Origin: Eukaryota sp. TZLM1-RC
Lineage: Eukaryota; Protista; Metamonada: BaSk clade
Length of the DNA stretch: 64,000 nucleotides
Assembly (NCBI GenBank): GCA_040285825.1
Contig: JAUPSS010000006.1
Location: forward strand, 248,001 to 312,000
Direction of reading: 5' to 3'
Shown here: positions 1,591 to 64,000 of the stretch, one piece after another
Numbering within the stretch: position 1 is the stretch's first letter
Layout of the letters: every line of letters starts with the position of its first letter
The notes under the pieces: generated by a model
The model's input: only the letters and a program-made list of their open reading frames with translations
Databases searched by the model: none
Told to the model about the DNA's origin: nothing
Translations under genes and position numbers: made by a program

Positions 1591-3855
1591 TTCTTTTATT
1601 TATTTTTATATTTAAGATAGGTTTAATTATGAGATGACTAAAGCAGCATCGATCTTTTGAATTTCTTCCTTTACTGTCATATTCTCTTTTCTAAAGATTA
1701 TCAATTTTCTGAAAAAATATATTCCTCCATTTTATTTTCACAAAACTACAGCACTTCTAAACTTCTGCTTGTTCAGTAGCTGGAAAGTTTATTTGAGGGT
1801 TAAAACAATGTTTAACATAAGAAAAGATACTTTTTCAAGAAATTGTTGCTCACAGATGTATTTCGTACATATCTTGCTCGTACATGCTGCTTGAATCGAA
1901 ATCATTCTGATTGTCCTTCTTAATCAAAGTTTGGTTAAAAAGATACAATATTCAAGCCTGATTGAAAGTTTGTTGCCGCAGACTCAATCAAAGTTTGGTT
2001 ATCTTCATTTTCCTCGGAACAACAGGCACATTAAACCTCAGTGACCTACAAGAAATCTTTGAAGGAGATTCAAGATAAACTTACATGCATTTAATAAAAA
2101 GAATGTTCCTCTTGAATTATTCAGATTGAAATTGATGTAGTGTTCGAGAACAGAATCAACAACTACTTCTTCGGGTTGGGCTAATGGTTCATCTGGCAAG
2201 AGAGAGAGGATAATTTGCACAGACATTCGTTTTATCTAGAGCATTACAATGAGCACGAATAAAATTTTTTTGTCCAGGATTGACAAGTTTTAGGTAGACT
2301 TGTCTTCACGTTAGACGCTAATTGACGAGCCCGACAAGCAAGGTAAGGAAAAAGCCCTTTTCTATTGATAAAATTACGTTTCTGAGACTGCAGCCAAGCA
2401 TTGAGAAAAAGATTGAATGAATTTCTATAAGGCACTAAACAATTTTCCCATGAAGAAACAAGAGACCTGTCTTGTTGATGCCGTAGGTTGGAAAAGTGGG
2501 GTTAAGATAAAGATGATTTATTTTCTATTCATATTATAAAAGCCTAAGGGCACCAACACTGCTTCTCCCCTTTTCAAAATCAATCGGCTTTGTAATGAAT
2601 ATTCAACTAACATCAATAACTAATAAACTAATTCTTCTTATTTCTATTACTACGTCTTGGCCGTTTAGGGGCGCTAGACTCATTGGAAGGATCTCTTCTA
2701 TTAGAAGTACGTTTACCAACTTTTCAAAAATTGCTGGACTGTCGTTTGATTTTGAAGTAATACTTGTAACAAATAACCATGTTTTGATCGAATATGATGG
2801 ATTTTTCAGAAGAATCCCTTATTTTCAAAGAACAGAAGATGATTTTCAACGTCAGTTGCTAAACGATCAATGGAAGGATCTTAAGGCTCAAGTAATGGAA
2901 AATGTATTGATACATATTTTGTACACAATACCAAATGAATTGATTCCTTCAGAACTAGATCAAATTCTGAATGTGGATTTCATGCATAATTTGATTGAAA
3001 ATCAACAATGGGTTTATCACTGTGATGAATCCCCTTACAGATCACTTCGCAGTAGTTAATTTGTTTATTTATGGTGAAACAATACAATAACGTTGTTTAA
3101 TTTGTGTGGATTAGCTGTTTTGGGATATGACGATTTTTTTACCTCAACAGGATTAATTCATTACTTTTTGTATTTGGTTCGGGAAAAATTTCCGGGATAG
3201 GAGAAAGGCTTAATATTTAATATTTACTCAAAGTTGGATGAATGGTATTGGCATGTTTCATGTGATCCTTGTACAATGTCATGATATTTCTTCTTTTAGT
3301 AGTTTTAAAGAATTTTAAAATTTATTAATTTCTCATTATTAACCTCGGGTAGCTGTTGCAGCAAGGGAATATCATGCTGAAGGTGATTCCCATTTTCATT
3401 TACTATTCCGAACTAATCCTAGATTACAAGTGACAACCCGAAAAAGAATCTGTCGTGAGCACTTTTTTTACGCTCAGGAGAAATGAATGAAACTTTTTTG
3501 TCTTCTTATCACAAAATCAAACTTATTTCGTCTCAAAGTTCTCTCTGTACTATTGGTCACAGTTTGGGAAACCAAAGAAATTGTTTCCTGCTCATCATTC
3601 CTTATCAGTGAAGCTATTTCAATGAGATTTCAATGAGAGTCACTATTTTCCAAAAAAAAGTTCAATTCATTTTAAAACCAACAGCTTGCTATTTGTTCTG
3701 CCATGAGTCGATGAATTTTTTAGTCTGTTTGGTAGCAAATTTCGGCACAGTGAAAATTAAGTAAGGGTTCTTTCATAGTGTTTTTGATGTGTTTTTTGTT
3801 GTAAAAAAAGTTCAAAATTTTCAGAAAAGGAAAAAATAGGCTTCAAATTAGCAAG

Positions 3856-4209: not shown

Positions 4210-4739
4210 GTCGAAAAGGGGACAAAAACAGGCTTCAAACTAGTGATGGGAGTGGGTCTATGTTGTCTAAAGGTATGTGGAAAAGCTTGGTGGAATTATT
4301 AGTAGAAGAAGCAGGAAGAAGGTTGGAAGTATCATCAGGATGCAAAGGTACAATATAATTCTCGTAGAAAGGCTTGCTGTGGAGTTGCAATAGATTTTTA
4401 AATCGGTTAATAACAGCCAAAAATTGTCTCAGGTTGACTGTTATTGGTGAAAACCTTGGACCAATCTCTAAACAATGTAGCAACAAATCCATCCAGAAAG
4501 CAAAGTATCTTCTTGTTGAACAGCACAACAATGATTGATTTTAAACTTCAATTCATAATCAAATTAATGGCAAAAGAATACTTTAATATATTTTTCAATA
4601 TAAAAATATTTTTCATCGTAATTATCATCGTCACAAAGGGAGTTAAAAATGGTGATGAATACAGATTCGCCATTGCCACTAACTTTCATCAGCCACCAAT
4701 ATACCTCGCTTCTGTGGAGCTTCAGCTTAATGGTCTCAT

Positions 4740-5704
4740 GTAACAATATCAATGATATCTGATTCTTGAGCAGGACCATCATGGGGATTAGTGCTGACAA
4801 ATTCAGCTGTAAATGGAGAATCAAAATGCTAGAGTGCAAACCGAGATTCAAAAGCAAATTTCTGATCTTGATCAACCGTATCTATGATAAGTAATAATAA
4901 AATACAAACCTAAAACAATCTCCTGAATTGTCAAATTGGATAAAAAAATTGTTGGTAGATTTTGCATCTTTTGGACATTATAATACCGAGCATTGACGTT
5001 GATTGTTCTGTGGTTAATAAAAAAAATACATACCCTCCGTCTAACCAAGCGAGCCAATGAACAATACCTGTGGTACCAATTCGAGTTGGCTCATCTGCCA
5101 CACATACATCGTATTTGAAATTACAAAAATCTTCAAACTTACCGGCTTCAGGAGCCATGTATACTTTGAGACCAGCCTAAAATTATAACCAATAAAAACA
5201 TACTTTTTGTAAGAGACGAACCACGGTTGTTTTTTCAATAGAAGATGGACCAGAGATGTACAAATGTTTTTCACGGAATGCTCGTTTAAAACCAATGGGG
5301 AATTCAAAGCGGCTATCAATCACTAGGTAACCCATGGTTTCAAAGCTAGAGTTAGATTCGGAGATGCCGACAGATTCAGCTTGCGCTTTAGCTATTAGAA
5401 TACTTTTGGCCTTTCTAATATAAAAGTTCATAAAATTAAATTGAATGTCATGATGGTCATAACCTATGATTAGTTTTAAAAAAAACAAACCTTGAGCAAA
5501 AACCTCTCGACACTTTAACAAGATGATATTGTATAATGACCAAGTACAAAGGACTACAGAAAGATCACCCTTGTGGTTTAAAATGCGTCCTTGTGATCTT
5601 GAATAAAAAAGTAATAAAATTTGCATTGTAGATCTAAAATAAACATTGAAAACCAATATGCCCTGATGATATACAATATGATTACAATAAAACACTATCA
5701 ACAC
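4740..5704 (-). pseudogene. Intron-containing SF3 (Rep/NS1-type) helicase; introns at 5177-5203, 5008-5033, 4882-4909 and probably 5464-5490
   Basis: Spliced product has Walker A LYISGPSSIEKTT (G>E), Walker B VCVADE, B' INVNARY, motif C PTIFLSN and Arg finger AFESRF; TAG at 4829-4831. Confidence 0.8.
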
Positions 5705-5706
5705 AA

Positions 5707-6708
5707 TTATTTATTAAAAACAGAAATATTACCAGCAACTACTTCAGGATTGGTATCAGCAACCCAATACAGAATAGTTTTTTCATATTGGACGTAAAGT
5801 TCGTCATCAGCATTAATATCTTCCGCAGCAAAATAAGCAATCAAGGGATAAGTTACACCATCAAAAGATCGTTCCAAGTCGATGGCATAAACATTAATCT
5901 TTTCCTCGGATGAGGTGTTGACCATCCAGCCAGGACCATATTCCCAGAGTCGTGCCCTGGCATCAATGAAATAATGGTCGTTACAGATTGACCAGGAGAG
6001 AGAATATTGGTTGTCTGGGATTGACCTTTGGCGGAGCTGCATGGCCTTTTTGTCAACTGAGGATTCCTTGGGGTATACTTTGACCGTACACATCGGTAAG
6101 TAATACCCCTTGGAATTGTTATTGAGAGGAGGAGGAGACATAGGGGGATACACTCCTTTAAAGCTATGCGCATCATACAGTGATAGAGAACGAAGCTGAC
6201 TAGTGTCCCTGTACGGGAAGGCTGAAATTAAGGCAGTACGGCCAAGGTAATGGTTTACAAAGGCATCCTGCGAGAGCGTGGGTTCTTGGCAAATGTTGCC
6301 CACCACCCATCGACCATCTAGGAATTGAGCCATCACCGGTAATGAAGAGGTATAAACCAGCCAGACAGGATCGAGACCTTTGACATCACGCTTATGTGCA
6401 ATGACAATCGGTGCATCGCCATCTAGATGTTCTCGATGCCAATAATCAACATTACTGGCAAATGCCTTTACTTGTTGACACAGGTAAGAATTCCTGTAAG
6501 GCGGAATGAACAAGGGGGTGATCCGGGCTGGTTCATCTTGGACAGGCTCTAGTGGTGGCAAGCAGTCAGAATCGGAGCCACATTCTGCATCCCGTCTTGT
6601 TGCTTTGGTGGGTGGCTTTCTCTTCACGGAGCATCCATCTCTTCTGGCCTTGGATTGCCGTGTACTCACCCCCGATTTGCGCTTTCTACATCGTGTGGCA
6701 GGAGGCAT
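5707..6708 (-). CDS. SET-domain protein (divergent lysine methyltransferase), 333 aa, basic N-terminus
   Basis: YFIDAR..GPGWMVNTS..NV..YFAAEDINADDELYVQY matches SET C-terminal motifs (NHS-like and ELxxxY). Confidence 0.75.
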   Translation of the reverse strand: MPPATRCRKRKSGVSTRQSKARRDGCSVKRKPPTKATRRDAECGSDSDCLPPLEPVQDEPARITPLFIPPYRNSYLCQQVKAFASNVDYWHREHLDGDAPIVIAHKRDVKGLDPVWLVYTSSLPVMAQFLDGRWVVGNICQEPTLSQDAFVNHYLGRTALISAFPYRDTSQLRSLSLYDAHSFKGVYPPMSPPPLNNNSKGYYLPMCTVKVYPKESSVDKKAMQLRQRSIPDNQYSLSWSICNDHYFIDARARLWEYGPGWMVNTSSEEKINVYAIDLERSFDGVTYPLIAYFAAEDINADDELYVQYEKTILYWVADTNPEVVAGNISVFNK

Positions 6709-7007: not shown

Positions 7008-7230
7008 ATGAGTGATACAGATAAAGTATGTTTATATGTTGGATTAACCGTAGAAGACAGAGAGTGCTCAATTAGAGAGTGCTCAATCAGAGACAGAGAG
7101 TGTTGTACAGGGATCTAATCCACCCAATGTACCAACTCTACAGGACGCCCACGAGTCGAGTACTGATGATAGTTCTGTATGTAATCCTCTTGTGCTAACC
7201 AGAGATTTAATCTGTGGGGAAGCCCACGGC
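7008..7230 (+). pseudogene. 5' fragment of the telobox-Myb family gene (paralog of 39889); 28-nt introns at 7026-7053 and 7177-7204
   Basis: MSDTDK|KTESAQ..ESSTDDSS colinear with 39889-40070. Confidence 0.7.
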
Positions 7231-8217: not shown

Positions 8218-8835
8218 TTATTTTTATTCAACAACAAATATGAAATACACAATTAAAACTCCACATCCTCAAAACCTGCCTCCCCTACATCAAAACAATT
8301 AATCGCTAAAGATTCAGAAAATTTCCCAAAAGAAAATAGTGAATCAGAAATTAGTTTTACCATTCCCTTAAAAATAGAAAATACAATCCTGTTTTGCCAG
8401 TAAATACGATTGAAAATTCTTCCAGTTCTTTCCTTTACAACTACAACAAAATCCTCAAGGAAAGCCATAGCAGCCTTACCTAGAGATCCAAGCAAAGAAA
8501 AAACAAATGGACATAAATTATATTGGGCATGGGAATTTTCATTCACCGAGGAAATGGGTTTCGCATATTTAGCAATTTTATATTTTTCGCCTGCAAGAAG
8601 AGGATTATTTACATCCGAGTTAATGAGATGTTCGTTAGAGGAATTACAAGGGTCGATAGACATGGCGTCCAAAATAGTAAAACTACCATTTAAACCAGGA
8701 ACAACTAGATCACCTCTAGTCAGACCCATAGAAGCTCTGTTGTAACGCGTACTATCATTATTGGGATCATCAAGAATTAATTTTGATAACAGCGGTTCCA
8801 AAAAGGAATCTACTCTATATGATTTGCACATTACA
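8218..8835 (-). mobile_element. 5'-truncated non-LTR retrotransposon, restriction-like endonuclease (RLE) C-terminus with A-rich tail
   Basis: EPLL..RGDLVV..ILDA..EKYKIAKY..PFVFSLLGSLG pattern; the flank 8090-8217 continues without this element at 47112-47250. Confidence 0.7.
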
Positions 8836-9986
8836 TAAAAAATAAATTTTGAATTTTGAATTTTGAATTTTTTCAACCATGCTGCTATTTGCGTCTTGTT
8901 CTTAAAAATAGACAATAATGTTCTGACGTGGCACGTCAAGCCATTAACCCAGAATTGTTTACAGATGTCCTTAATAAGTAAGTTAAGTGAATGAGTGACG
9001 CAATGACTCGACAACACAATGTTATTATCCTGGAGAGTTTTGAAAAGACCAACAGCTGCTGCGTTGACCGTAGCTCCATCTAAGGTCAACCAAATGATCT
9101 TCTGAGCTTCTTCCACAATCTTTCTTCATTTCGTCAACCCCACTAGATTAGGATCAGAATGTATCTGTATCAATTTAGCCACTTCAGTAGCACCAAAGAC
9201 AATTATATCAGCTAGATGGTCTTGGTTCTGCTCTCGACAGTCCGCTGGTATACAACCGATGTAGAACGATCGTCCGTTCGAGGCAGCAATGATATTGTGA
9301 CGAGGTGTCATACCTGTAGAATAGCCATCAATAGAAAGTTCAAAGGAGTGTGAGATGAGTGAAGGAATAAAGCACTCGGCAATGAGAAGTTTAACTGTTT
9401 GATGGAGCTTTGGAAGAATTGAGTTGGACAGCTGCTGACGATTTGGACCCAGAAAATTAGGTTTAACTTGTTTAGAACGATGAATCTGAGCAAAGTAACG
9501 TAAGAAATCCTGAAAGGATTCCTTTTCAATAGTATTAAAAGATATCCCGGAAAGAGCAAAGGCGAGACATGCTTTCTTTCCTAAAGTTGCTTGAACGTCA
9601 TCTTCTACAAAAAAGTCATTAGTCTCCATTGGATCAGTTAGAGTAATTGCTTCACTAACAGAAGCTGACTCGATATAAGCCTTGTTGTTTTGTTCCTCAA
9701 TGGCTTTTTTTACCTTTTGTTCAGCTAGAAACATAGAAAGTTCTTTTGTATTTTCCCAACCAGAGCATGACGGGATATGGAGAGGTCCCCAGCGACAAGT
9801 GTTCTGCTTGGCGAAAACCTTACCACAGCCTCCACACCACACATCCATGTTGGTGGTGGTCTTCTTGTTGGCGATTTTCACCATTCGCCAGATCGTTTTA
9901 TTGCTATTGACGATATGGGTCTTAAAACCGGGAGGAGGTTCAAGTTTGAAAGACTCCCGGTAGCGGGGGGTGGAGGAAGATGTCAT
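8836..9986 (-). mobile_element. hAT-superfamily transposase, one in-frame TGA at 9126, 3'-truncated by the RLE element
   Basis: BED-like CxxC..H..C, ISFNTIE..F, PNRQQLS, first catalytic D in LSIDGYS, second D in LTLDGA, CxxH motif CVTHSLNL. Confidence 0.8.
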
Positions 9987-9994
9987 AATCAGAA

Positions 9995-10116
9995 TGCAAA
10001 AAAATACAAATCAAAAAATACAAAAAAATACAAATATATCGAAAAAAAATACAAATACAAATACAAAGAAAATACAGAATACAAATAAATACAGAAAATG
10101 GTATTTTGCAAGTATG
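9995..10116. repeat. Degenerate (AAATAC)n subterminal repeats and probable left end of the hAT element
   Basis: Repeated aaatac units ending in tgcaagtatg; absent from the homologous inverted copy at 26620. Confidence 0.55.
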
Positions 10117-15623: not shown

Positions 15624-16283
15624 ATGAAATATTCCAGAGCTTGTTGATTAAAAGGAACAAACCCTGGAACTTTGGTGGCAATTGGGGATAAGGCATGTCT
15701 TCGAAATACATTTGGGCATGTACTTTCTAGACGATGTAAAATTGACAATCCCCAATGGCTTATCAACCAACAATTATAAACAGTGACATCCAATTCATCA
15801 CGCCTCAGGGCACGCGTATACAAATCATTAGATGTTACTGTTTGGTTCCAAATTTCGGAAATATGAAAATGATATTCATCATACCATTGTCTTAAATTTT
15901 CAGAAATTGTGGAACCGGAAACCACACAACTGGCATACTTTGATGGAGCAGGACACTCCATCTGCTTACCCATAGACCTGAAGAAATTCAGTTTTCAGGT
16001 CACAGGGCCATCGGTCAGCAGCTGTCTGTGAGCTGATTCGAGTTGAACAGCTCTATTGCTAAAAAGAGCAGCCTGACAAAAGGGTGGATGTTCTTGGCCC
16101 TCTACTAACGGAGGCCACGGCCAGGTAGCACTTGATGTCATATGCATAAAAGCCTCATAGACATCAGGGTTAGTGCTCTTGAAAGGCTCCCTAATTTTAG
16201 GTCGACTGTGGGTGACGCAGTCGAAGCACTGCGACCAGAATTGACGGTGAGCGAGCCAGCAGGACAGATGCGGATAGATGCTC
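15575..16283 (-). pseudogene. Unknown 'DGPVxWKxNFF / CPxPxKYA' family member; TGA at 15995, 5' end replaced by Ty3 sequence
   Basis: QFWSQCFD..WPWPP..LLTDGPVT*KLNFF..CPAPSKYA..QWY aligns by eye with the 33362 ORF. Confidence 0.75.
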
Positions 16284-18204
16284 CTTGCAGAAATCCGTGC
16301 AACAAGTTAAGAGTGTCCTTAATGAGTGATTTGGGAATCACTATCTTGTTGTCGAGAGTCATGTATAAATCAAGATGATTGTTATGAACACTGTTGTTGA
16401 AAGAGGGGTCTTTGGAAGCTTCGGCAAGCTTCTGTTCCGACCTAATCCTACAGAGCCATGGCTCGAAAATAGGGAGGTCGTTGAAACATCGTTCTTTGAT
16501 GACCATGATACGTTCGAAATTGTTTAAATCTTCTATGTAGTATCTTCCGTTTTCTGTTCTATCTATTTTATCGATATAAAATATTGGATGAAAATTTGGA
16601 GACATTTGATGGGACAAATGATTGATCTCTTGATGGTCTATAGGCGGAACTATTCGAGACAACATATCAGCCCAGAAGTTATCTTCCCCTTTGGTGTGTA
16701 CCAATTCAAAGCAGAATTTAGAGAAAATGGGTAACCATCAGGTTACAATTCTGTTCTTGTCTGGAGCTGTGAACATGTAGGTAAGGTTTTGATGGTCTGT
16801 GAATATGACCAGTTTCCTTCCTTTCAAGTAGTTTTCGAAACCACTTTGTGTCAACATCAGTAAGATGGCATAGAGTTCCTTTTGGTTTGTTGGCCAGTTC
16901 TTTTGCGAGTTGGTTAGCAACCTGCTGAAGAAACTGATGGGCCTACATTTCCTGTTGATCAGGGGAGTACCGGGGTCGTCGACTTGTTCGATTTGTTCCC
17001 ATATGACGCCGCCTACAGCAATGTCGGATGCGTCGCAACTTATTAAAATTTGATTTTCCAGTGGAGGTAAGTTGTACGGCATGTGCTGAGCTATCAGTTG
17101 TTTGATCTTTTGAAGGAGTCCGTCATGCATATCCATTGTAGGCGTTGCGCTCGGGGTTTGGGTTTAATGTTGGCGTTGTTCCCAACCTTCTTAGTCAATC
17201 TGATGATAGGAGCAATGAGCTCAGATACCTGAGGAAGCCATTCTCTAATGAAGTTGACTGATCCTACGAGGCTGCGGACGTCTTTGATTGTCTTTGGTCT
17301 AGGTAGATTCAACAAAGATTCAACACGAGTGGGATCGAAGGTCCGTTGTTTGTTTTGGAAAACACTGCCCAGTATCTTGATGGGGTGTCTGGAAGACACG
17401 AAATGGCACTTTGGAAGTCCCAATGAAACTCTTTTGCATCTAGTTTGATCGAGGACGCGTCGGAAACGCTCGATGAATTCGTCAAAGGTTGAACCTATGA
17501 TTATGATGTCATCTATATAGATGAATACACCGTCTCCAGAGAAGATGTCAGCCATGACGTTTTGGAAAACGGCTGGGACATTTTTGAGGCCAAACGCTGC
17601 ACGTTTGCACATGATGCTTTCACCAGGAATGCTCAGGGCTGTTTTGTGCCAGTCCTTTTCAGCAATCTTGAGTTGCCAAAAGGCTTGGGGGGGGGGGGTC
17701 GAGGGTGCCTATGTAGTTTGCTTGAGAGAGAAATACCAGCACATCGGAGATCCTTGGAAGGTTGGGCTCAACAGGAATGGTGTTGGCGTTGACTCCGTCC
17801 TTGCCACTATAATCACCAGTAAGGCGGGGCTTACAGTGATCTGGGTAGACCACTAGACAGACAGGGGAGCTGAACTCATGGTTCGATGGAACAGCAAATC
17901 CAGAGTCTACGAGTTCGTCGAAAATTTGGTTAGCGACCTCTAGCCTGGCTGGATTCAGGGTCCTGGGGGGTTTTCTAACTCTGACGTCTTCATTGTAGAA
18001 GTTGATTTCCATGGGATTGGTGGGCAGACCAATCTTTCGCCTACTAATACACAGGGAGAAGTCGGGAGCCATTGGTATCTCACATGCCATGTCCGGATTA
18101 CTCCAATACTTTGCAAAACCCACCAGGTTTCTGGTTAGTGCTTTCAATAGCCTATTGTAATGTAAACGGTATTGGTGGTCCATGAGAATGGGGATATACG
18201 TCAA
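16284..18204 (-). mobile_element. Ty3/gypsy LTR retrotransposon pol (RT, RNase H, start of integrase), frameshifted and truncated
   Basis: FSSPVCLV, FGLKNVPAVFQ, YIDDIII (RT); CDASDIAVG, FFSRLL, ELYAI, FTDHQNL (RNase H); GEDNFWADMLSR; RT-RH-INT order. Confidence 0.93.
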
Positions 18205-21200
18205 GATGCAATTTCACCTATATTACTCTAATGATCTTAATGCTTTTTCCATGTTAATCCTTCCTGACGTTCTCTTGCTGAACAATGTTAGTCTTTCATC
18301 CAGCAGCTGATCTACACCCATATTTCAAAAGAAGGAAATGAACCATTGTATTTGATTGTATGTTGTGTTGTACATGGATACATAAATCAGTATTGGTATT
18401 TATTTTTGTTTCAACATTTTGTCAACACTAGTCAACAATTGGCAATGTTCCAATTATCGGGGTTAATGCTCAGATTTAGCAAGACATTGTATTTGGATAT
18501 AATTGTATACTATGACATGACTACTGCAATTGTGTTTCTTGTATCTGAAGAACAAATGCAACATTTTATAGATTTACATGGTATTTATAGTTTTGTATAT
18601 TTGATAAATAAACAAGGTTGTAATAGTCTTTATTATTGAAGAGTATTAGAAAACTAAGTATTAGCCTAGAAATAGGCTATTCGTATCCTTACAGGTGATA
18701 GGCCCATATAAATAGGCCCAGATAGATGTTTGTTTAATAAAATTTTAAAGTTTTACACCTCAAATATATTTCCAAGAAATTGCTCTCGAAAAAATGGAAA
18801 TTCAATTTGCTTGTATTTTGTTGTACAATAAAACAAAACTTAGTTAATTTATTTTTTACGTAATAAATGTTTGACACTTTTAGAGATTTTATGACAATTT
18901 ATGGGGAGGTTAATGATAATGAATTATCTTTAAAGAAAACCATTATTATTACATAATATATTGGTGAATCTATTATGATATTAAAACGATATTCTCCACG
19001 TTCATATCTTTCATAACGAAAATACCAAACTTCGATAGGATAGGATCGATAGGATTGACACATGAAATTAAATTTCTTCCAATAAAGCATGTAAACAATT
19101 TAAAATTATTCATTTGAAAAGGTGAATTCAATTTTAAACTTCATTTTCTGATGAAAAGTTTGTGATGTGTTGAACGCAAATTCATTGTCCTTCATGGATT
19201 CATTGACCATAATGCTATTTGTCAGTGATCAGTGGACCAATGACAATTAGAATTTATTCAATTCCAATCTTCGCCCACAAAAACATAGACGAGATTTACT
19301 AAAAAAAATTTTTGAAAAAAAAATTGTTGTTGAAAAATTCTATTTTTGAATTTCTCGATCGTTTCCCTGAAGACATTCATTTGCTGCTGAATCCATCATC
19401 TACGCATTATTTGTATGACCTTGATATTGCTATTAATAAAATTACACCAGAAATTGGGTTGTTCTTGCAATGAATATAATATATCAAATGATAAATTATG
19501 TTTGAATTGTGTAATCATGTTGAAAATATTCAAATAAATATTAATTCATCGACAAACAGATTGAATTTGTAGACAAGTGTTTGAATTGTGTTGACAGAAA
19601 AAGTATATATTAATAGGGAATTGAAAACAACTAACTCTGAACTTATGACAGGAGCTTTATTTTGTAAAAAATTGGCCAATACACAGTGAATCAGCTGATG
19701 TTAGTTTGTCAATGATCCATACCAATCTCAGTTTGTGTCAGAAAAAATGTTAAAACAGAGACCAGAATCAATTTATTTATATCGGAAATCTCCTTTTAAA
19801 TGGTAATCACCAATCAGAAATAATAAAACAAGAATATAGGCAACTCACTAGTGAGCTGACTCGTGGGTACTGTCAGGAGACATGTAAGATACTGTAAATG
19901 AATAAATGAATTACTCAATTACATACATTCCTTAAATGTCATAAAACTACTCCTCTAGTGACATCACTTCTCAACACATACTTGTCAAAAGATGTATAAA
20001 AACCAACCAAGAACAGCATGAGCTCATTTTTCAGTGGCTTTGTTTTAGTATTTGTAACTATCAATATTTGTTGTACCTTGAAAATAAACTCTTGGTGTTG
20101 CCTTATGTTTAAATGAGTTAGGAAAATTGGATTTATTTTCTATTTCAAAGTAATTTTTTATTTTACCACATTATATAAGAATTAAGGCTCCACCACAGCT
20201 TCTTCCTTTTTTCAGAAATCAATCATCTTATACGAATATGAAACCAAAATATAAACAAATAAATAAATAACTATCAATACTGAGAACTAGCTATGGTTCC
20301 TAATTCTATCACTACGTCTAAGAAGTTTAGTGGACGTAGCGTAGGACACTACCTATGGTCGAAATTTTCGATCTTTTTTTGGTCAAACATTTTTACAAAC
20401 ACGGTACTTTATTCTACTACCCAATAATTAATACCCAAACATATAATTAATTCCATCAAGGTCTTTAGGTACCCATTCAATGGTTCACTGTTAAAGAAAA
20501 GAGGTATGTAAAAGGACGTAGCACACAATGTGATCCTGTTGAAAGTTAAAAGACGATGAAACAACCTTGACAGCGACCATTTTTTTACGAGCGTTTGGGT
20601 GTCTAGTTCATTCGGAACGACCTTTTCATATAAGCAGCAGAGCAGTGAGATTAGTAAAACCAGGTGATACATCCAAAAGAACTGCACAGGGGAGCATTTG
20701 TAGCAAAGCAGCTTTTGCCGTTTGATGCAAAGTTTTTTTTATCACTGATTTTGGACCGACGATGTTCATAAGAGATGTCTAGGTGTATATCAACCATAAA
20801 AATTGTAGATAAGATAAATAAAAGGGACTAAAGGTCATCCGCAGAAGCGTGTGGTACTTTTTAACGTATTATATCGTTCAAAGAACGAAGTAAAAGGTCA
20901 GCTTGTGTATTTAGTCCGGACGACGGAATAGATGATAATCGTCTTCCAGAAAATGACACTACTGAAGGAGAAACTAAGGAGAAACTAAGTATAGATATTA
21001 ATAGATACTCCCCTGTAATTAGAAAATTAGTTTATAGATATGTACAAGTCTAAAAAGCTGAAAATTGAAAAGAAAAATGAAACAATGAATAAATACCGTA
21101 TAAATAAATACTTTACTACTGACTAACAATAAATTTACATATGATAAATAGAATAATAATAATAATAATTTTTTATTTGTTAAAATATGGTTAATTTAGA

Positions 21201-26899: not shown

Positions 26900-27345
26900 A
26901 TACCTCAAGACGTTTCAACTCGTTGGAACTGATGTACCTACACGCACACTCCAAATGGCGAACAATTTCTGTCAAATAATGACAAATGACCCAATTGTAT
27001 GGAAGCTTAACTTCTACAAAACAATGGCAGTCTTCTTTGACTGTCCAGCTCCGAAAGGATAAGCTGCTGCCGTTCATAAAGATTCCGCCGTTTCTGAGCA
27101 GGTACTTGGTTGGTATGACAAACATCATGCTCACATAACTGACTGATTTAACTAACAAGCAGGTGACCCTGCTAGGTTCCAATAGGTCAACCCCCTCCTG
27201 GAAGAAACTGACATCCAACTAAACGCTGACTCGATGACTTTTATCTTCTCTGCCGGCATCCAAGTAGTTTGTCCTTCCTCGAGAACATGCCCGGTGAAAC
27301 AATGAAGAGACACGCTCTCGCTCCATCCGCAAGCTACTCACCAGG
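26900..27345 (+). pseudogene. Degenerate DGPVxWK-family copy
   Basis: LQMANNFCQIMTNDPIVWKLNFYKTMAVFFDCPAPKG*, with several stops. Confidence 0.7.
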
Positions 27346-27489
27346 TTTTATTTCTTTCAGTCAACAAAATGAAAACACTTCTTGCGTTTAAATCCAAATC
27401 GACATCTACTCAGAAATTCATTCAAGCTCTTCAACAAAAAAACTTTGCCCTTGGATACACTTGCATCAGATGGTTTATCTCTCAGGTTA

Positions 27490-27684
27490 ACATTCTCAAC
27501 AGCTTCTGAGAGAACCATGAATCGCCGCTCAGCCAGAGAATTTGAAACTGCCATAACCAGTTGACAACACGATATGCCTGCCAAGATTCGGAAACGCAAC
27601 TCCAGAGTTCAACAACAGGTCCGTGCAAGGCAACGCCGAAGAACTGACGACGCCTATGAGCCTCCTCCAGTTGATCCAATTTGA
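27490..27684 (+). pseudogene. Partial copy of the 28693 ORF
   Basis: Identical RKRNSRVQQQVRARQRRRTDDAYEPPPVDPI-coding sequence. Confidence 0.75.
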
Positions 27685-28029: not shown

Positions 28030-28600
28030 ATCTTGGATTATATCAACAGCAGTTTTGGTATCAATGCCAAGACTTTGTAATGGTACCTCATCCGAGTGTG
28101 AGACTCCCCTTCGAGAATCATATGGAAGTGCACTGCGCACTCTATGATGTATCTTTCCGACCTGGCTGGCCGTTTCCTCCTATTGGCTTTCAGAAAGGAA
28201 CCGACAACTGGTGCCACTCTGACATTAGAAGCTTTCGCGCACTGCAAATGGCGAACAACTTTTGTCAAATACTTACTGATGGTCGTGTCTACTGGAAGCT
28301 GAACTTCTTCCGGACAATGGCTACCGTCTTTGAATGCCCTTGTCCAAAAAAATATGCTTCAGTGCTGAACACGACTGCAGCCACTATTCCTGACTCTTTG
28401 CAAACATGATATGATGCTCATTACGAGTACATACTGGACCTATTTACTCACCAAGTTGTCGATCCTCATCGTTTCCACACTATGTTGATGCTGGACAGTG
28501 TTAATCTCAATCCAGACAACACCACCTTCATCATCACTGCTGGGTTAAATATTTTATCCTTTCTCGAGAATACTGCATCTGATGCCATGATTTATCTCTT
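28030..28600 (+). pseudogene. DGPVxWK-family copy, TGA at 28407
   Basis: QFWYQCQD..GWPFPP..FCQILTDGRVYWKLNFF..CPCPKKYA..GLNILSFLE. Confidence 0.75.
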
Positions 28601-28692
28601 TTAGTCAAAAACTGGAAAATCATTTTCTTTCTTTTACTGCCAACCTTTGTCTGCTGATGAACCCGTTTGCCTATTTCAGAAAATAAAGGTAT

Positions 28693-29109
28693 ATGACTTA
28701 CACACAAAATTCAGATGCTGTTTCAATCCGCTTTTCATTTTCCTTTGCCCCCAAAAAAACCAAAAATCGCCGGATAGCCAGACAATTGGCAACCACCATA
28801 GCCAGTGGACTACATGATATGCCTACCAAAAGTCGGAAACGCAACTCCAGAGTTCAACAACAGGTCCGTGCAAGGCAACGTCGAAGAACTGACGATGCCT
28901 ATGAGCCTCCTCCAGTTGATCCAATTGAATATTCATTTTGTGCAATTGATCCTAACCACAAAAATTTGTGTGGGTATTCAATTGAAACAAGAATAAATAA
29001 TGAAAATGTTGACCATCAACTTTCGCACCTTGTTCTAAATTTAAAGGCAAAGAAGATCATTCAACCAACTGACCACAGCTTGGCTCAGTCTTGTTTTGCC
29101 TTTTTATAA
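28693..29109 (+). CDS. Unknown basic protein, AIDPNH family
   Basis: ORF track plus paralogy with 3856 and 27490. Confidence 0.5.
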   Translation: MTYTQNSDAVSIRFSFSFAPKKTKNRRIARQLATTIASGLHDMPTKSRKRNSRVQQQVRARQRRRTDDAYEPPPVDPIEYSFCAIDPNHKNLCGYSIETRINNENVDHQLSHLVLNLKAKKIIQPTDHSLAQSCFAFL

Positions 29110-34294: not shown

Positions 34295-34746
34295 TTCAAA
34301 GTAAAGTTAGTTACAAGTGTTTATTAATGATACATATCCTTTAAGATTACTTTCTGAATATTTTCCTTTCTTCAGACAAGAACTACATGTTACAAAAGTT
34401 GGTGAGTGGAGTTTGGTTGGGTTGTCATCATTCCCCAGATTCATAATTGAATTTCATTTCATCACTTACAACATTTCATCACTTACTCTACTACGAACCT
34501 TCTCCCTACAAATAACACTATGGTCACGCCTTCTGACACCACAAATCTAAGATTATGTCGGCCGTTGGGTCGGAGATTTTCAAACACAAGTACTTATAGA
34601 TGGGGTCAACCGAGTGGACCCTATATATATATATTAAGAACCTTCTCTATCCTATCTTAACATTGCATAACTTTCATCACTTTGTATTTCAACTTCATTA
34701 TGCCTTCTGTACTCTCATTAATCATTCTCTAGTCATTCCATAAACT

Positions 34747-35394
34747 TTGCTATTGTGTCTCGTGTTTCTCAATACAACACCTTACTTAGTTCCTTCCTTC
34801 GACTCTATGACTTCACTTAAGCCAATACATCTTGCCTCCACCAACGATGACAGCAGTGACGATGACAGCAGTGACGATATGGTACTCAGACGTAGCCCCT
34901 TACCTAGGGCCTACCCCTCTGATTCCAACACATTGAATGCAGTACTTACACAATCACAACTTACTCCCGGTGAATTAGCCCTTCAACAGGAACGTAACAA
35001 ACTTTCCCTAACAAGAGGTTCTTATCAGCTACGCCCTCTTCGTCGACGTGCTGCTAACCGTGATCAAATAACTCTTCCATCTTGGATTAACAATAAGCCG
35101 TATACCACACAGATTGCACTCTTTTGCAAGCGATCTTTGTCTAATTTTAAGATATATTTTGCTCGCTCTCTCTATCTGCAACATCACAAATGTTTAGGGT
35201 TGGGCCTCTATGCTGGTGAGAACATTCCTCGTCATGATTTTATTTGTCCACACAAAGGTGAAACCCATTATTTCTCATCCGTTGCTGAAGCTGATCAGTA
35301 TTGCGATTTAGTTGATTCATCATATTGCTTTGTATTCCCTTCCACCATTAAAAAAGGTCATTATCTTGTAGTTGATATGGGGTCGACCCTTTGA
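34747..35394 (+). pseudogene. SET-domain N-terminal half, truncated
   Basis: GLGLYAGENIPRHDFICPHKGE..YCF..VVD. Confidence 0.7.
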
Positions 35395-39888: not shown

Positions 39889-40562
39889 ATGAGTGACAAT
39901 ATTCAAGTATGTTTATATAATGGATTAACCATAGAAGACAGATAGTGCTCAATCAGAGACAGAGAGTGTTGTACAAGAATCTAATCCACCCAATGTACCA
40001 ACTCCACATGACGCCCACGAGTCGAGTACTGATGATAGTTCTGTAAGAATTCCTATTGTGCTAACCACAGATCCAATCTGAATCCCCTGACTCTAGTTCT
40101 GAAGAAGTTCTAATCCATTCACCACCACCTCCTAGGGACACACTACTGAAAATAACTCTAGGTAGTTTCATCAGTCATTTTGGTGTCCCAGCAGTACTTA
40201 CTACTGTTGCTGATATGGTGGATGTTAGAGCAAGAAGAACTGGTAGCAGTGTTGAACCAACTAAAACACAAAGGACTGCTATTCAGCCGGTGAGCGATGA
40301 AACCAGTGTACCCGTGTCTACTAAGAGAGTTCACTGGACCCCCCAAGAAAGTAAAAACCTGTGGATTCTGTGGAAAAACACAGATCCAAATCCTTGCCGC
40401 AGAAACAACTGGAAACGAATTCTAGAAACTGGACACATGCAAAGTGCTTTTTGTGCTGATCGCAACCCTGGTAAGCTCAAAGACCGTCTCCGTTGGCTCC
40501 AGGACAATCCTCATTATGGTAAAGAGCAAGATTTCCCAGAGGATGAGAAAGAGGATCAATAG
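39889..40562 (+). CDS. Intact spliced telobox/TRF-like Myb protein, 205 aa; exons 39889-39906, 39935-40042, 40071-40562
   Basis: Two 28-nt GT..AG introns give one open frame; C-terminal HWTPQESKNL..NWKRIL..F..RNPGKLKDRLRWL. Confidence 0.8.
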
Positions 40563-47712: not shown

Positions 47713-48240
47713 CTAACAAATGCAAAATTCACAAATGGTACTAATGTGGGATTTAGGGATATATACTGGATTTCGAATTGGTGATTTGATCGAAAAAAGG
47801 ATGTGATTAATCAAAACGGTACGCCTAAGCGACATCTGACTCTCCAGGAGGAAAAAACAAATAAACTGCGGAAGGCTGTCTTGACCAAACCCATCCAAAA
47901 AGACATATTGGCCAGTTTCAGCAACAGAGCTGATCCCAAGAAAAATTTTTATTTCCAGCATTTATGTCAACATTCATCAGTTCCCCTCCATAATAGAGTA
48001 TTAAGGAGCCCTTTGTGATTTCTTCATCTGCAAAGACACTGATACCTACACCCTGAAAGTCAGACTCTTTAGTACAGAGCTTGTCACAACAAAGTGGCAT
48101 GAAAAATGATGTGGTATCATTGTTTCTTGCTGGAGGGGTGAGATGGGGGTATACGGGGAGATAAAACTCCATGTTGGTAATATCAGCAGTTTTAGGATGA
48201 TTGAGTTACACGGAGCTGGAGAAGGAATAACATATAGCAA
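47713..48240 (-). pseudogene. SET-domain pseudogene
   Basis: KESDFQGVGISVFADEEITKGSLILYYGGE, then a frame change to YVFLDG..PQFI. Confidence 0.65.
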
Positions 48241-48549
48241 GTTAATATATATACCAAGTCAATGGATTGAAATTGTTGTAAACAACACTCAGAATTTCTT
48301 CACAGAACATATAAATGATTTATGAAAGAGTTGTATGACTTTTGGAAAAATGTGTTTTTAATCAACTTTATTTCAAAAAATTAACTACTGCTTACGCTTT
48401 TTAATTTTGGTTCGTTGAACAACAGGAGGTGGACGATTTCCTGGAATAATCTTCTGCTGAGGTTTCTTCATTTCTTTTTTCTACCAAACTGTGTTGATGT
48501 GAAACAGAACTGTTACTATTAAAATCATTATTTATTACAAACAATAAAA

Positions 48550-48890
48550 TTATTTAGGAACAGCATCAGAATCACGGTTTAAACCAGAAATGGAGTTTGG
48601 AAGAGGAGCACCATCAGCCAAGTAAGACACAAATAGTTCTTCATCTACTTCAATTCTTCGGAGAGCACGATATGCAATGCCTGTAATTACATCTTCTTCA
48701 TTCACTCCATCATTGATCGTGACATCTTCCACAATTGCATACACATTACATTGATTACCCATTGATTAGGCGGTATTTACCATCCACCCTGGTCCATATT
48801 CATTTAATTTACGGCTAGCGTCAACATGAAGATCATTATTTTCGTCAATTGTCCATTTATAACCAAAAATACCTTCTGGATTTGCATTCT
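48550..48890 (-). pseudogene. SET C-terminal half, paralog of the 5707 ORF
   Basis: HVDAS..EYGPGWMVNTA*..NVYAI..IAYRALRRIEVDEELFVSY. Confidence 0.75.
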
Positions 48891-49614
48891 ATTACAACGG
48901 TGTTTAACTGTTTTCAATCGGACCAATTGGTGTTTATAAATTCACGGATGGATGTGAAGAAAAAATTTGATGAAAATGAACAAAATTTAATGGAATATGT
49001 CAATTATGTTAAACAACCTTTTGTTAATTTATCAAAAGAAAATATAATCAATCAAATGTATTTTGATATTCGACAATATAAAAAAACCACAAAGGATTAT
49101 TTTGAAGATGAAACGAATTTAGAAGCACATCAAACTCGACAATTTACACCAAATGAAATCATTTAATGTTGAAATCAATTCCATAAATTCAATTCAAAGC
49201 CAACTGATCGAGATTTTTTTATTCATTGGGTTTGATAATTCATCTGAAATTAATTTTGAGGGTTGTTTGTTTTGTTATGATTATCCAGTATGGAAATGTG
49301 AAAAACAAGAACGAATAGTTTTGATTGATGATCAAGAACACAAACTATATACTAAACACATGATTCAATTAACAATATTACCTTGTTGTAAAATTTTAGG
49401 AAATGGTTTTCATTCCTTCTTTATTTTACCTGGTTACGAATTTTTAATAATGGATGAAACTCATTATATTGTTTTGCTAAAAAATGATCGTGTAAAAAAA
49501 GATGAATTTAATTAACTAAAATGTCACCTCCACACAGAAAAGGTAAAACAAGGAAAATCTCAAAACAATCTAAATTGATTAAAAAGCCATCGAGAAATGT
49601 TGTTAACAATTATT

Positions 49615-50508
49615 GTTAATGCTCGGTATCACAACGTTTAAAAATACCAAAAGTTACCCACTATTTTTCTCTCAAACTTGTCAATTAATGAAACTCCGCA
49701 CGTCCATTAACGATAAAAATAACAGCCAATTGATGGACATATTTATGAATATTTGGATTGATAAATTTGATACGAGTAATGAGAAACTGGTGATGATATT
49801 TTCAATTTGGAAAATGTATTTGTAAACAAGGTCAATAGCCTTGAATCCTCAATATAATCAAAACAGCTTTTGGCAAACACGCCCCCACGCAATAAGGACG
49901 AAACCAGTTAAAAGGTCCTTTTCAAAGTTCTAGAGAGAATTCTAGAAGTGGTCGACCCAAATCTTCAGAGCAAAGGTGTAGCTTATGCAAAACCAACAAA
50001 CATCCTGAAGAAAAATGTTTTAAAATGTTGGGAAGACCTGGTTCAAAAAAGCGCGAGGGAGGAGATAAACGTAATAGTAAACGTAGTACAAATAAATCAG
50101 ATGAATATACATCTTTTAATAATAACCTTACACATAATTCAGTCAACAATATTTATACAATGAGCAAAATTGATACGAATTATAGACACCTCAATCCATT
50201 AAAAAGATTTAAAGAGTCGTCCAATCCTGTCGGTTCAATCCACAGTGCTAGACTATTCAGGGTGACAGGAGACTAAACAAGTTCTAACGGGGAACTTTGG
50301 TTGAACTGTTCAATAAACAATGTGAAAGTACAGGGCGAAATTGATAATGGAGCTGCATTATCAGCATTATCAATGGTTGATTAAATATCCGATGAGAAAT
50401 TTTGCTAAATTTAGAAAACAACCAACAATACTAGTCAAATCAGTTTTTTGAAGATATTCAATAGTTGATCAACAACCACCATTACAATTAGTTTCAAGAA
50501 GTCCTCCA
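49615..50508 (+). repeat. Duplication, inverted copy at ~61645-62527; begins with an SF3 helicase B'/C fragment
   Basis: Near-identical ORFs 49613/62317 and 50025/61860; VNARYHNV*KYQKLPTIFLSN. Confidence 0.9.
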
Positions 50509-55412: not shown

Positions 55413-56330
55413 CTATTTAGATCTATTAATATAAAGGATACGAGTACCTCCTACTGCTTCAATAACTGAATCTGATGTGATTTTACCTGGGTCTGTCATA
55501 ATCATCATAAGTAACCGGTTGCGTTTAGCAACATATGGGTTTCCTCCTTCAGAACAAGACTTGGAGTAATCTACCCATAAATTAAGTGCTGAGGCAACAT
55601 TGAATTCTGCAATATGATTAGTTCCTGTGTGATCTGTTGGTTTAAATTCGACTAATCTATCTTGAAGTACTTGGAAACGTTTGAGCATGAATGCATGACT
55701 GAAAACATCAACCATTGGTTGCTTTGGGTCATAATTAAAATTACGATAAGCAGCATCGTGGTGATTGGAATCATATGATGCAAACATACATGGAAGTATG
55801 TCATGTGCGAAGGAAGTTGGTGCTTCTGGAAAACCATCAGCTTGAAATGTTTGATTACCTGGTTCAAGTTCCTGGAATTTAGCATATCTTGGCATGTAAC
55901 TTGGGTTGTTAGGTTCCTTATATATAAAAAGGATAACACGTGCACGTGGATGAGAACATTTAGTTGCTTTAAGAGCAACGCGTGATTCAATACCTTTGAT
56001 AACAATTGCCTTATCTAATGTGTTTGTAGATTGAGAATTAGCTTGAATTTGTGTTAAATCTTGAATAGTCAACCATTTACCATCTTTAGAATAATAAGGT
56101 GCAGATTGTGCAAGAAGATTCTTAACTGCCTGTTTTGAAGAATCAATTGTTGGATTTAATGGAAAAATTGCATGTTCCAATGGAGTACTTTTACGAGGAG
56201 CATAAGTGCGAGAAGGAGGAGGTTTGTAAAGAGATCGTAAAGATCTGCGACCATATGCACCATAACCAGCATTACGTGCCCTACGATTAGGAAAACGTCT
56301 TCTGCGACGAAATCTACGACGAGGATACAT
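55413..56330 (-). CDS. cap: CRESS virus capsid protein (Arg-rich arm, jelly-roll), virion sense
   Basis: MYPRRRFRRRRR N-terminus; RVILFIYK, RFQVLQD and C-terminal RILY resemble gemini/genomo/STNV-type capsid strands. Confidence 0.85.
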   Translation of the reverse strand: MYPRRRFRRRRRFPNRRARNAGYGAYGRRSLRSLYKPPPSRTYAPRKSTPLEHAIFPLNPTIDSSKQAVKNLLAQSAPYYSKDGKWLTIQDLTQIQANSQSTNTLDKAIVIKGIESRVALKATKCSHPRARVILFIYKEPNNPSYMPRYAKFQELEPGNQTFQADGFPEAPTSFAHDILPCMFASYDSNHHDAAYRNFNYDPKQPMVDVFSHAFMLKRFQVLQDRLVEFKPTDHTGTNHIAEFNVASALNLWVDYSKSCSEGGNPYVAKRNRLLMMIMTDPGKITSDSVIEAVGGTRILYINRSK

Positions 56331-56368
56331 GTTGTGAAAAAAATAATGTTATTTTTCTGATTTCTCTT

Positions 56369-57403
56369 ATGACACACGAACTTGCTTACTCAAAAACTCA
56401 AACTGATGCTGGTAATCTCTGGAACCTTGGTTTAACCAAATATAATGGTGGAAAAAATGACGTGATAAGAACAAAAAGATGGAACCATACCGGTACCATC
56501 GGAACAACTGACTTTATGTGGGTCATGTACAACACTCACACGAATGCTTTGAATGAATATGTATGGCCATGCACACATGTTCTAGATAATGATAAGGCCA
56601 AAAACGGAATTTTCAATCGAACATATTTAAAGTGGAATGAGGATTCAGAAGATGATGAAGAAATAACTAATGATGCAACCAGAAGAACAGTTGCACCAGC
56701 TAACAGACCAATGGTTGTAAGTAACAACAATGGTTTTGACTTTGGAGAAGGAACTGATTTTTCAAGAACAAGATTGTACTTCCGGATGACGTTAGATACT
56801 ATTTCATATAGACATGGATATGGAATAGGAAATGGTGCCGATCAATTAATAGAAAGACGGCATTTTGTCAAAACTGAAGAACATTATGATTGTGACTACA
56901 TGGGCAGGTTGATTATTTGGATAGACAACACAATGGAAGGAGAATGCGCTCTGATAAATAATGAACAATGGTGTGAAGATATTCAAAGAAGTCCAGAAAG
57001 GGAAGATTTAGTTGCTAATGACTTTGAATATAATTGGTCTAAATATTGGACCAATGCAACAACTGGTATGTTGCGTTATAGAGGTAAAAACACTACTGAA
57101 ATACTGAGTGCAAAGTGTAAAGGTAAAGTTCTTCATGATGAAATCTTTGATATTAAATACAAAGAAATGAATGTTGTTGAAGGTGTTGTAGAAGGAATTG
57201 CTGATAGGAGTGAAGGACCAAACTTAACTGATGAAGGTCCTTTAAAGTATACACTTATAGTTGGAGGTATGAGAGGAGGTGTTGAAACGAATTCAGCTTA
57301 CTTTGAAGGAAATTGGGGTACGTATGACCCTGAACCTTTTGCTATAATGGGTAATGTGCTGAATTATAGTATGGTGTTTGATTTTAGATTTAGTTCAAAA
57401 TAA
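56369..57403 (+). CDS. Viral 344-aa protein, putative second jelly-roll/minor capsid
   Basis: Intact ORF; GRLIIWID, KVLHDEIFDI and terminal VFDFRF parallel the capsid strands; no basic arm. Confidence 0.55.
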   Translation: MTHELAYSKTQTDAGNLWNLGLTKYNGGKNDVIRTKRWNHTGTIGTTDFMWVMYNTHTNALNEYVWPCTHVLDNDKAKNGIFNRTYLKWNEDSEDDEEITNDATRRTVAPANRPMVVSNNNGFDFGEGTDFSRTRLYFRMTLDTISYRHGYGIGNGADQLIERRHFVKTEEHYDCDYMGRLIIWIDNTMEGECALINNEQWCEDIQRSPEREDLVANDFEYNWSKYWTNATTGMLRYRGKNTTEILSAKCKGKVLHDEIFDIKYKEMNVVEGVVEGIADRSEGPNLTDEGPLKYTLIVGGMRGGVETNSAYFEGNWGTYDPEPFAIMGNVLNYSMVFDFRFSSK

Positions 57404-57408
57404 ATGAT

Positions 57409-57822: not shown

Positions 57823-57909
57823 ATAAGCCTTTTGATATGTAGGATCAGTTTGTGCCTTTTCGGCATCAAAATCAGCATCGAAATATCTATTATGATGATA
57901 ACCAACTAG

Positions 57910-58710: not shown

Positions 58711-58765
58711 GAAGGGAAATAAAATGAAATTAAAAATTGCATTTGGTGATGACGTGGCAACACTT

Positions 58766-58798
58766 GAAAAGCGTGGGTAATACTAATTCACGCTTTTC
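58766..58798 (-). promoter_or_regulatory. Rolling-circle origin: perfect 10-bp stem with TAGTATTAC nonanucleotide (58777-58785, minus strand)
   Basis: gaaaagcgtg-ggtaatactaatt-cacgcttttc. Confidence 0.95.
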
Positions 58799-58843
58799 TA
58801 TCATTCTCACTGTGTGTGTCATCATCATCTTGATTCACTATAG

Positions 58844-62439: not shown

Positions 62440-62845
62440 CGTGCGGAGTTTCATTAATTGACAAGTTTGAGAGAAAAATAGTGGGTAACTTTTGGTATTT
62501 TTAAACGTTGTGATACCGAGCATTAACATTAATTGATCTGTGATTAGTAAGAAAATTCAAACCCTTCATCTAGCCAAGCTAGCCAATGAGCAATACCGTT
62601 GGTTTCGACTCTGTTGGGTTCATCTGCAACACAAACATCAGATTTTTAGTTGCAAAAATTCGCAAATTTACCGGTATCGGGAGTTAAGTAAACTTGGAGA
62701 CCAGCCTAAACTTAATAAAAAATAATTACAAACTTTTTGCAAAAGACGCACAACAGTGGTTTTCCCAATGGAGGAGAGACCAGAGATATATAGACGTTTC
62801 TCTCTGAAAGCACTTTTAACTCCAATAAGAAATTCATCATTTAGT
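62440..62845 (-). pseudogene. Second intron-containing SF3 helicase copy; introns at 62706-62733 and 62538-62562
   Basis: LYISGLSSIGKTT, VCVADEP, HWLAWLDEG|SINVNARY, PTIFLSN; two TAA stops. Confidence 0.8.
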
Positions 62846-64000
62846 TTGTTATTACCCTACAAATTATCCAAGATTTCAGAATAAAGTTAACAAATAGATT
62901 AAGGATGAATAGATATTTGATAAATAGAATCAAAAATATTAAAATTGTTTAAGATTAGTGATGAGATATAAAAATAAATAAATATAAACGTATTACAAAG
63001 TTATTAAAATTAATTCATATAATTATTTCAATTTTAAAAATTCTAATAAATATATTGCTGACAAAATTGAAGATTAACGTCGACGGTTATAATGGTGTTG
63101 TTAATAACCTGTTTCTCACAGATTGGATGCAATAACCTTTTTGTGAATTTTGGCAACTCTGTGGGATAAAATAATCTGCAACAACAATAATTTGTTTTCT
63201 TTAAATTGGGCTTCACAATAAAATAAAATAAATTCAAGTGTCTGTCAGTAACTAACCATAGGTCGTCTCTTTGATCTGATGCATTGTCTATACAATATAT
63301 ACAATCTCTATCTCTGTGCAGAACTACCTTAGCTTTCTCAGTGGCGAGTGGTATGTTGGAAATCCACATAGTGCCGTGCCTCCTCTGGATTTTTATGGTC
63401 CACAACCTGGTGTATGCCATTCCTTCAACAGTTCCGTCTTTCTACATTACCCCCAACCATCACATACTTCTAGCTTGGTCTCTTTTCTCTCTGTATATCC
63501 ACACTCCAGCCCTTCAGCAAGTAATAATGATAAATAATAAGTTCATCTTTTCAACAACGTTTCTCTAATGTCATCCTCTGACGAACATCTTGATAAACAA
63601 TCTATCACCAATCATATTCAGTATCATAAAAAAACAGTAATGATTTAGTTTATGACCAAAACAAACATTAAGCCAAAAGGAAAATAACCAATGCAAATAT
63701 GCTGATCCCCATATTTCTACACAGTGACTATCTAGGATAAACCTTGACAGAGCACACTGGTAGATGAAAAGTATCGGTACAGTTGTAACAAAAAGGCACT
63801 ATTTGAACGAACTTATATGCGCTCACAACGAAATTGAGAAAGGTTTTCAATATCGACATATATTTCAGCAAAAGGAGAAACTTCAGGTGAAGTTTTGACG
63901 GACTGTGGTGAATCAGTCCTTGGTATATTGGATGATGGATCTTCTATAGTTTTGATAAACTCCTTCTTTAAATACTTGTGGAATCTATCCCTGATTGATT

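Follow-up and report, generated by a model that had tools for sequence, protein, structure and literature searches.

The window analysed here, a stretch of 64,000 nucleotides from contig JAUPSS010000006.1 of Eukaryota sp. TZLM1-RC, carries on its minus strand the remnant of a Rep with an SF3 helicase (4736..5626), a pseudogene of five predicted exons (5626-5491, 5463-5204, 5176-5034, 5007-4910 and 4881-4736) which is referred to below as copy 1. Its reading frame is broken over three frames unless it is spliced. When four GT..AG segments are taken out, the motifs that we take to be Walker A, Walker B, B′, motif C and the Arg finger become collinear in a single frame. An earlier note on this DNA had claimed that the fragmented helicase regains its motif order in this way, and the claim was confirmed; P0003, a public gene model, and the spliced product of copy 1 agree in every residue up to the premature stop (229 of 229). 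P0003 is the prediction of an RNA-trained annotation pipeline (PMC11316075), the splicing itself being predicted, and the five searchable supplements of that paper gave no expression value for the gene model.

The four predicted introns begin with GT(A/T)TGT, are AT-rich in the middle and end in TAG or CAG. Intron 1 (5464..5490, 27 nt), which P0003 also treats as an intron, has a branch-point-like CTAAT beside its 3′ AG. Intron 2 (5177..5203, 27 nt, phase 0) contains two in-frame stops and is shared, like intron 3 (5008..5033, 26 nt, phase 2), with a second copy of the gene. Intron 4 (4882..4909) is 28 nt long. The Walker A motif (5228..5251) is degenerate, with Glu at 5236-5234 in the place of the Gly of viral Reps and of copy 2, so that the Walker A reported in the earlier note has its place in the order of motifs but is altered in sequence. 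Walker B lies at 5087..5101, and motifs B′ (about 4997-4983) and C (4949-4935) occupy 4935..4997. The Arg finger (4849-4838) is followed by a premature TAG at 4831-4829 (together 4829..4849), past which the frame runs on for another 30 codons and ends at 4736. In a rough pattern match, 17 of 22 viral Reps continue for 15-27 residues beyond the Arg finger, and the premature stop of copy 1 falls short of the end of the helicase domain. Since a short-read DNA contig is identical to the window over 5094-5251 (0 differences), a stretch that spans intron 2 and the altered Walker A, these two features are not assembly errors.

Tests of the Predicted Introns

The junctions were tested with a Rep profile made from nine free viral Reps only, all frame-keeping deletions serving as alternatives. 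For all five testable introns of copies 1 and 2, including intron 4 of copy 1, the GT..AG deletion was the top-scoring one of its kind at its own junction. Alternative deletions that scored better numbered 5/1029, 0/980, 21/980, 9/980 and 4/980, the second value belonging to intron 3 and the third to intron 4. Intron 1 (5490-5464) is beyond this homology test because residues 1-105 of copy 1 are not matched by the viral profile, their score being no better than that of shuffles (67/1000). An assignment of these residues to the oligomerisation region of Rep was rejected, as the similarity was not significant. Segments of the GT..AG type with 25-28 nt showed only a weak excess over shuffles in the window as a whole. 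The segments, whose removal restores a collinear frame, are predicted spliceosomal introns.

The host is the type isolate of Skoliomonas litria, described as a free-living metamonad of soda lakes (PMC11603281), with a genome reported to be 35.8% GC and 55.4% repetitive (PMC11316075); the window is alike in both respects. The words "virus" and "viral" are absent from the main text of the latter paper. An unrelated repeated small gene of the window has a 28-nt GT..AG segment a few codons past its start in three copies (about 7026-7053, 7648-7621 and 39907-39934). The branch-point-like motifs near the 3′ AG resemble the fused signals that have been described for diplomonads (PMC6679479). Judged from these few cases, 25-28 nt would be the usual intron size of the host.

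Identity of the Protein

The earlier note had proposed a virus-type SF3 helicase, and the proposal was supported and narrowed to the Reps of CRESS-DNA viruses with a geminivirus-type HUH. Pfam assigns the spliced protein of copy 1 to no family. Compared with the viral-only Rep profile, P0003 aligned over residues 101-227 with an hhalign probability of 99.5% (E 1e-22). A HMMER search of 1.84 billion representatives returned 10 matches, namely three host models, one LysM protein and six CRESS-type Reps (E 1.5e-5 to 9.4e-4), Gemini_AL1 being found in three of these six; for one of the three host models the common part is an unrelated C-terminal stretch only. Walker B, B′, motif C and the Arg finger follow one another within about 120 residues, as in SF3 helicases. 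The predicted structure, which had viral Reps in its input alignment, reached a pLDDT of 63-88 over residues 91-229, and all 25 matches listed in a PDB fold search were SF3 helicases; searches of the atlas and of viral structures likewise gave SF3 helicases or CRESS Reps. Taken together, these results identify the predicted protein as the helicase part, of SF3 type, of a CRESS-DNA virus Rep whose HUH is of the geminivirus type. In the atlas, the two feature-nearest clusters are mostly eukaryotic with Rotifera commonest, an observation which suggests that similar Rep-like families exist in rotifer genomes.

A further proposal is that the gene has decayed and the segments are merely errors of assembly or indels due to chance, or else that the protein is an AAA+ ATPase of cellular origin. 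This proposal can draw on the predicted nature of the splicing and on the lack of a Pfam family. It has to face the junction test, which favours the GT..AG cuts, the identical intron sites in two copies, the short-read contig that spans one intron with no difference, and profile and fold searches dominated by SF3 matches, and we consider it scarcely credible.

Free relatives were gathered with two of the six Rep matches and one fetched locus as queries. In all 22 free loci obtained, the Rep is a single uninterrupted HUH-SF3 open reading frame without an intron, accompanied by a capsid-like open reading frame on the opposite strand and by a TA(A/G)TATTAC site. The loci measure 2.3-2.7 kb, with one of 4.1 kb, and 20 of the 22 have terminal repeats; the capsid of one of them (L001) is Gemini_coat. 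For comparison, genomes of Geplanaviridae and Geplafuvirales are given as 2.3-2.9 kb (PMC13689118). The helicase domains of the free relatives are 29-38% identical to that of copy 1. A quick tree was made from 45 helicase domains, with 14 outgroup rows out of 120 listed. The three host rows group together in it (SH-aLRT 99) within the free-virus Reps, set off by a stem of 1.8 changes per site, and the tree carries a long-branch warning. Free relatives of the host copies themselves were not found in scans of one set of viral contigs and one set of metagenome contigs, in which near-exact words were required, nor with P0008 and P0005 as further queries.

Further Copies and the Age of the Introns

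Copy 2 (62447..62856, minus strand) is broken off past motif C, where a repeat cuts into it. Its Walker A (GxxxxGK[T/S]) is intact at 62781-62758, and it has lesions in the form of a TAA at 62648 and another at 62503. The two introns of copy 2, at 62733-62706 (28 nt) and 62562-62538 (25 nt), occupy the same codon positions as introns 2 and 3 of copy 1. Because the lengths of the shared introns differ by one base between the copies, the reading frame is kept only by splicing. Copy 3, a piece with motifs B′ and C at 49607..49695 on the plus strand, was duplicated along with the flank of copy 2. It is identical to copy 2 in 88 of 89 nt and lies inside an 897-nt duplication at 92.6% identity, and for this reason is no independent copy; it is the third fragment that the earlier note had placed at 49615. 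Two host gene models, P0001 and P0002, are near-identical over their first 110 residues and have a lesion in Walker A unlike that of copy 1. The gene is multicopy, as had been claimed, in the form of three diverged lineages (copy 1, copy 2/3 and P0001/P0002), and all helicase copies seen are on one contig. Each lineage has lesions of its own, every copy seen in the window and among the annotated models being broken. It was also observed that the Gly-Lys of Walker A is altered independently in two of the three lineages (5236-5234 in copy 1; P0001 and P0002), which may be a matter of chance or may mean that an inactive ATPase was selected for.

Compared across 108 codons, copies 1 and 2 show 19, 13 and 53 differences at codon positions 1, 2 and 3, respectively. 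The corresponding pS is 0.71, which is near saturation, and pN is 0.12, with a ratio of 0.12-0.25 (bootstrap) and a corrected dN/dS of 0.06. Purifying selection acted between copies 1 and 2. The earlier note had described introns at the same two positions with diverged sequence between conserved exons; the positions were borne out, while at the DNA level the introns (75-77% identity) are no more diverged than the exons (73-75%), conservation being seen at the level of protein. If all 30.5 replacement differences had arisen by neutral decay, about 1.8 stops would be expected, and two are seen; about 11 silent differences would be expected as against 51.5 seen, and it follows that the silent divergence arose in a working gene. 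Our main result, from the comparison of the copies, is that the predicted introns were present in an ancestor which diverged under purifying selection, the decay of the copies having come later. This age of the introns is equally compatible with a viral ancestor, with a transposon and with a gene of the host. As the introns are older than the divergence of the copies, they could equally have sat in a free virus.

Strong purifying selection between the copies would also be expected of a domesticated host family, in which helicase paralogues without HUH, possibly ATPase-dead decoys that poison the rings of viral Rep, have in part begun to decay. The annotation of copy 1 as a model of 229 residues is in line with this explanation, as is the fact that Walker A has been altered differently in two of the three lineages, and intron gain would be expected in old host genes. 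Nevertheless, every copy seen is broken and copy 1 stops inside the helicase domain; an HUH remnant beside copy 1 (see below) points to a whole Rep, and no match was found in other eukaryotes among the protein collections searched, which may lack sister species. Domestication is, in our estimate, unlikely.

Flanking Sequences and Neighbouring Elements

The earlier note had found no HUH upstream of the helicase, and this holds. Downstream, a motif II remnant of the geminivirus type was detected on the plus strand at 3343..3480 (Gemini_AL1 E 0.0055, below cut-off; 15.9 bits, 0 of 1000 shuffles as good). It lies 1.3 kb downstream of the helicase on the opposite strand, HUH and SF3 thus not being in one gene, and decayed Fanzor/TnpB-like pieces (4173-3934 and 3599-3453, minus strand) are found between the two. 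Motif I was not found upstream of the motif II remnant. A candidate motif III at 3481-3531 was dropped, since this stretch proved to be the reverse strand of a Fanzor-like piece. Also rejected was a Rep that had been split from the outset, its HUH and helicase converging at both copies. The HUH beside copy 2 belongs to the circovirus type, and in the comparisons made it did not resemble the remnant that accompanies copy 1. The place directly upstream of copy 1, where the HUH would be expected, is taken by a SET-like open reading frame (5707..6708, minus strand; Pfam SET E 0.0021, below cut-off).

A profile of 27 capsid-like open reading frames from the 22 free loci gave no match above 2 bits across the window, in which the flanks of the copies are overwritten by repeats. 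An origin hairpin was looked for around copy 1 without success; the site at 2757-2764 forms no stem-loop (z 0.84), and TAATATTAC is absent from the window. The element termini whose definition the earlier note had proposed were sought around the copies, and neither terminal repeats nor clear ends were found.

Several repeated families surround the copies. The SET-like family is multicopy (5707-6708, 34744-35394, the latter by eye only, 48062-48879 and 63286-63784), and two copies compared had pS 0.79 and pN 0.40. Fanzor/TnpB-like sequences form five diverged remnants in the window (34198-33422, 28032-29076, 26913-27666, 16315-15677 and 4173-3453). In the protein collection, the Fanzor-like family is an 18-member cluster at 90% identity with members of about 600 residues on several contigs, and may have been active recently; a close sibling of copy 1 is not present in the same collection. 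In the full-length Fanzor-like members the pattern described in PMC3627910 recurs with a somewhat larger gap ahead of the zinc finger, and their PF07282 scores of 24-26 bits fall just below the cut-off. What remains of a hAT-like transposase (DUF659, E 0.003) lies at 8253-10010, and an LTR-retroelement remnant with RT and RNase H at 16138-18213.

Three kilobases from copy 2, at 55413-59185, there is an unrelated CRESS-like insertion of at least 3.8 kb. It has TAGTATTAC in a stem-loop (about 58758-58793, z -5.6), a circovirus-type open reading frame of 113 residues that encodes HUH only (Viral_Rep E 1e-15), an Arg-rich capsid-like open reading frame (56330-55413) and three further ones without Pfam families. 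The capsid-like frame (55416-56330) had no PDB match, and its predicted model was unusable. The open reading frames of this insertion are long and unbroken. Its presence means that such viruses do enter the host genome. On another contig, P0020 is a second circovirus-type HUH, 53% identical, which also ends about 20 residues past motif III; there are hints in this shared ending of either an HUH-only protein or a spliced Rep. A 28-nt intron after the HUH of the insertion was considered and rejected, as splicing leaves a stop and the score is 130.1 against 130.3.

Origin of the Copies

CRESS Reps nick the origin and unwind the DNA as a ring helicase. The explanation that we prefer, with a probability of roughly 0.5, is that the copies are fossils of a CRESS-DNA virus lineage of the protist whose Rep already had host-sized introns. 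Such a virus would replicate in the nucleus of the host, where the spliceosome would take four introns of 25-28 nt out of the Rep transcript, splicing in vivo being deduced from the gene structure. The spliced HUH-SF3 protein would then nick the origin of the circle and unwind it as a ring helicase. Diverged viruses of this kind, presumed to have existed in free form, would have integrated separately and decayed, and later insertions would have broken up the flanks of the integrated copies. This explanation is favoured by the finding that the closest non-host proteins are CRESS Reps whose relatives are capsid-encoding circles, by the fact that the lineages died each in its own way with copy 1 left without a close sibling, and by the nearby unrelated CRESS insertion with its origin hairpin. 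Against it, a Rep intron is seen in none of the 22 free relatives, though these are distant from copy 1, and the window holds no capsid remnant and no origin hairpin near copy 1. The helicase copies seen cluster on one contig, and four introns exceed what the two-exon Reps of cruciviruses have (PMC7468197). Moreover, the other CRESS insertion has long unbroken open reading frames, and introns are thus no necessity for viruses of this host.

A less probable alternative is a capsid-less rolling-circle transposon or episome derived from a CRESS Rep, which would have gained four host-type introns in skoliomonad nuclei, diverged into subfamilies and is now dead. The missing capsid remnant and the long stem of 1.8 changes per site that separates the host clade from the free viruses would both be accounted for, and the same type of 28-nt intron recurs in a multicopy non-Rep family of the window. 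From fungi, transposons that resemble geminiviruses and have Rep-like genes have been described (PMC3198968). SET-like pieces occur upstream of both copies; however, the window has many SET-like and Fanzor-like pieces, so that their adjacency may be due to chance, and the Fanzor-like gene is not near copy 2. Terminal repeats, clear ends, young copies and a close sibling of copy 1 would be looked for in a transposon and were not seen. A more specific version, in which a CRESS Rep shed its capsid and became a skoliomonad rolling-circle transposon, an SF3 analogue of Helitrons with four micro-introns and Fanzor-like cargo downstream, seems quite unlikely to us. Helitrons and other DNA transposons are known to carry Fanzor-like nuclease cargo (PMC3627910), while Helitrons are recognised by a Pif1-family helicase (PMC8788227) and the helicase here is of SF3.

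The suggestion of the earlier note that the gene belongs to a long-resident element or is domesticated goes beyond the evidence, since all copies seen are broken, no termini were found and the introns could equally be viral. It is likely that a virus, or a mobile element derived from a virus, relied on host splicing before the copies were left behind. Under either the viral or the transposon explanation, a viral gene would have gained several introns of host size, which makes this a datable case of intron gain. An unclassified CRESS lineage would also be tied to a free-living metamonad. Virus discovery based on open reading frames is blind to such genes, and the viruses of hosts with micro-introns may be undercounted.

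Comparison with Known Systems

The unclassified CRESS-DNA viruses gathered here (L001-L022, P0005-P0008, P0010 and P0011) have the same motif order and the same type of HUH motif II as the host copies. Their Rep is, however, one open reading frame accompanied by a capsid and a nonanucleotide, whereas the host gene has four introns and no capsid remnant, and its HUH lies apart. Endogenous CRESS Reps of the protists Entamoeba, Giardia and Blastocystis are reported to occur, as here, in multiple Rep-like copies, mostly without capsid (PMC3198968, PMC9615429); in Blastocystis, 37 of 38 elements are given as Rep-like. In the main texts of these two papers the word "intron" occurs 0 times, and the host in our case is a free-living metamonad. 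A search of titles and the opening parts of abstracts, in a literature with few subscription papers, returned no description of multi-intron endogenous CRESS Reps.

The geminivirus-like transposon of Tuber melanosporum (PMC3198968) resembles the present case in having a Rep-like gene in a repeated chromosomal element. It differs by the transposase, the 37-bp terminal inverted repeats and the near-identical copies reported for it, none of which was found here. Mirusviruses are a precedent for nuclear viruses of protists with many spliceosomal introns; they are nevertheless unrelated, being large dsDNA viruses in which intron length is reported to peak near 80 bp (PMC12768974). Dependence of Rep on host splicing is described for cruciviruses and maize streak virus, a spliced Rep being predicted in 36 crucivirus genomes (PMC7468197). 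Those crucivirus Reps have two exons with sites of the maize streak type, whereas the predicted introns of copy 1 number four, are 26-28 nt long and, in three cases, fall within the helicase motifs or directly behind them. Precedents thus exist both for CRESS Reps that are endogenous and for Reps that are spliced. New here is the presence in one Rep of four such introns (26-28 nt), at sites that were kept across a near-saturated silent divergence, when the 22 free relatives have none.
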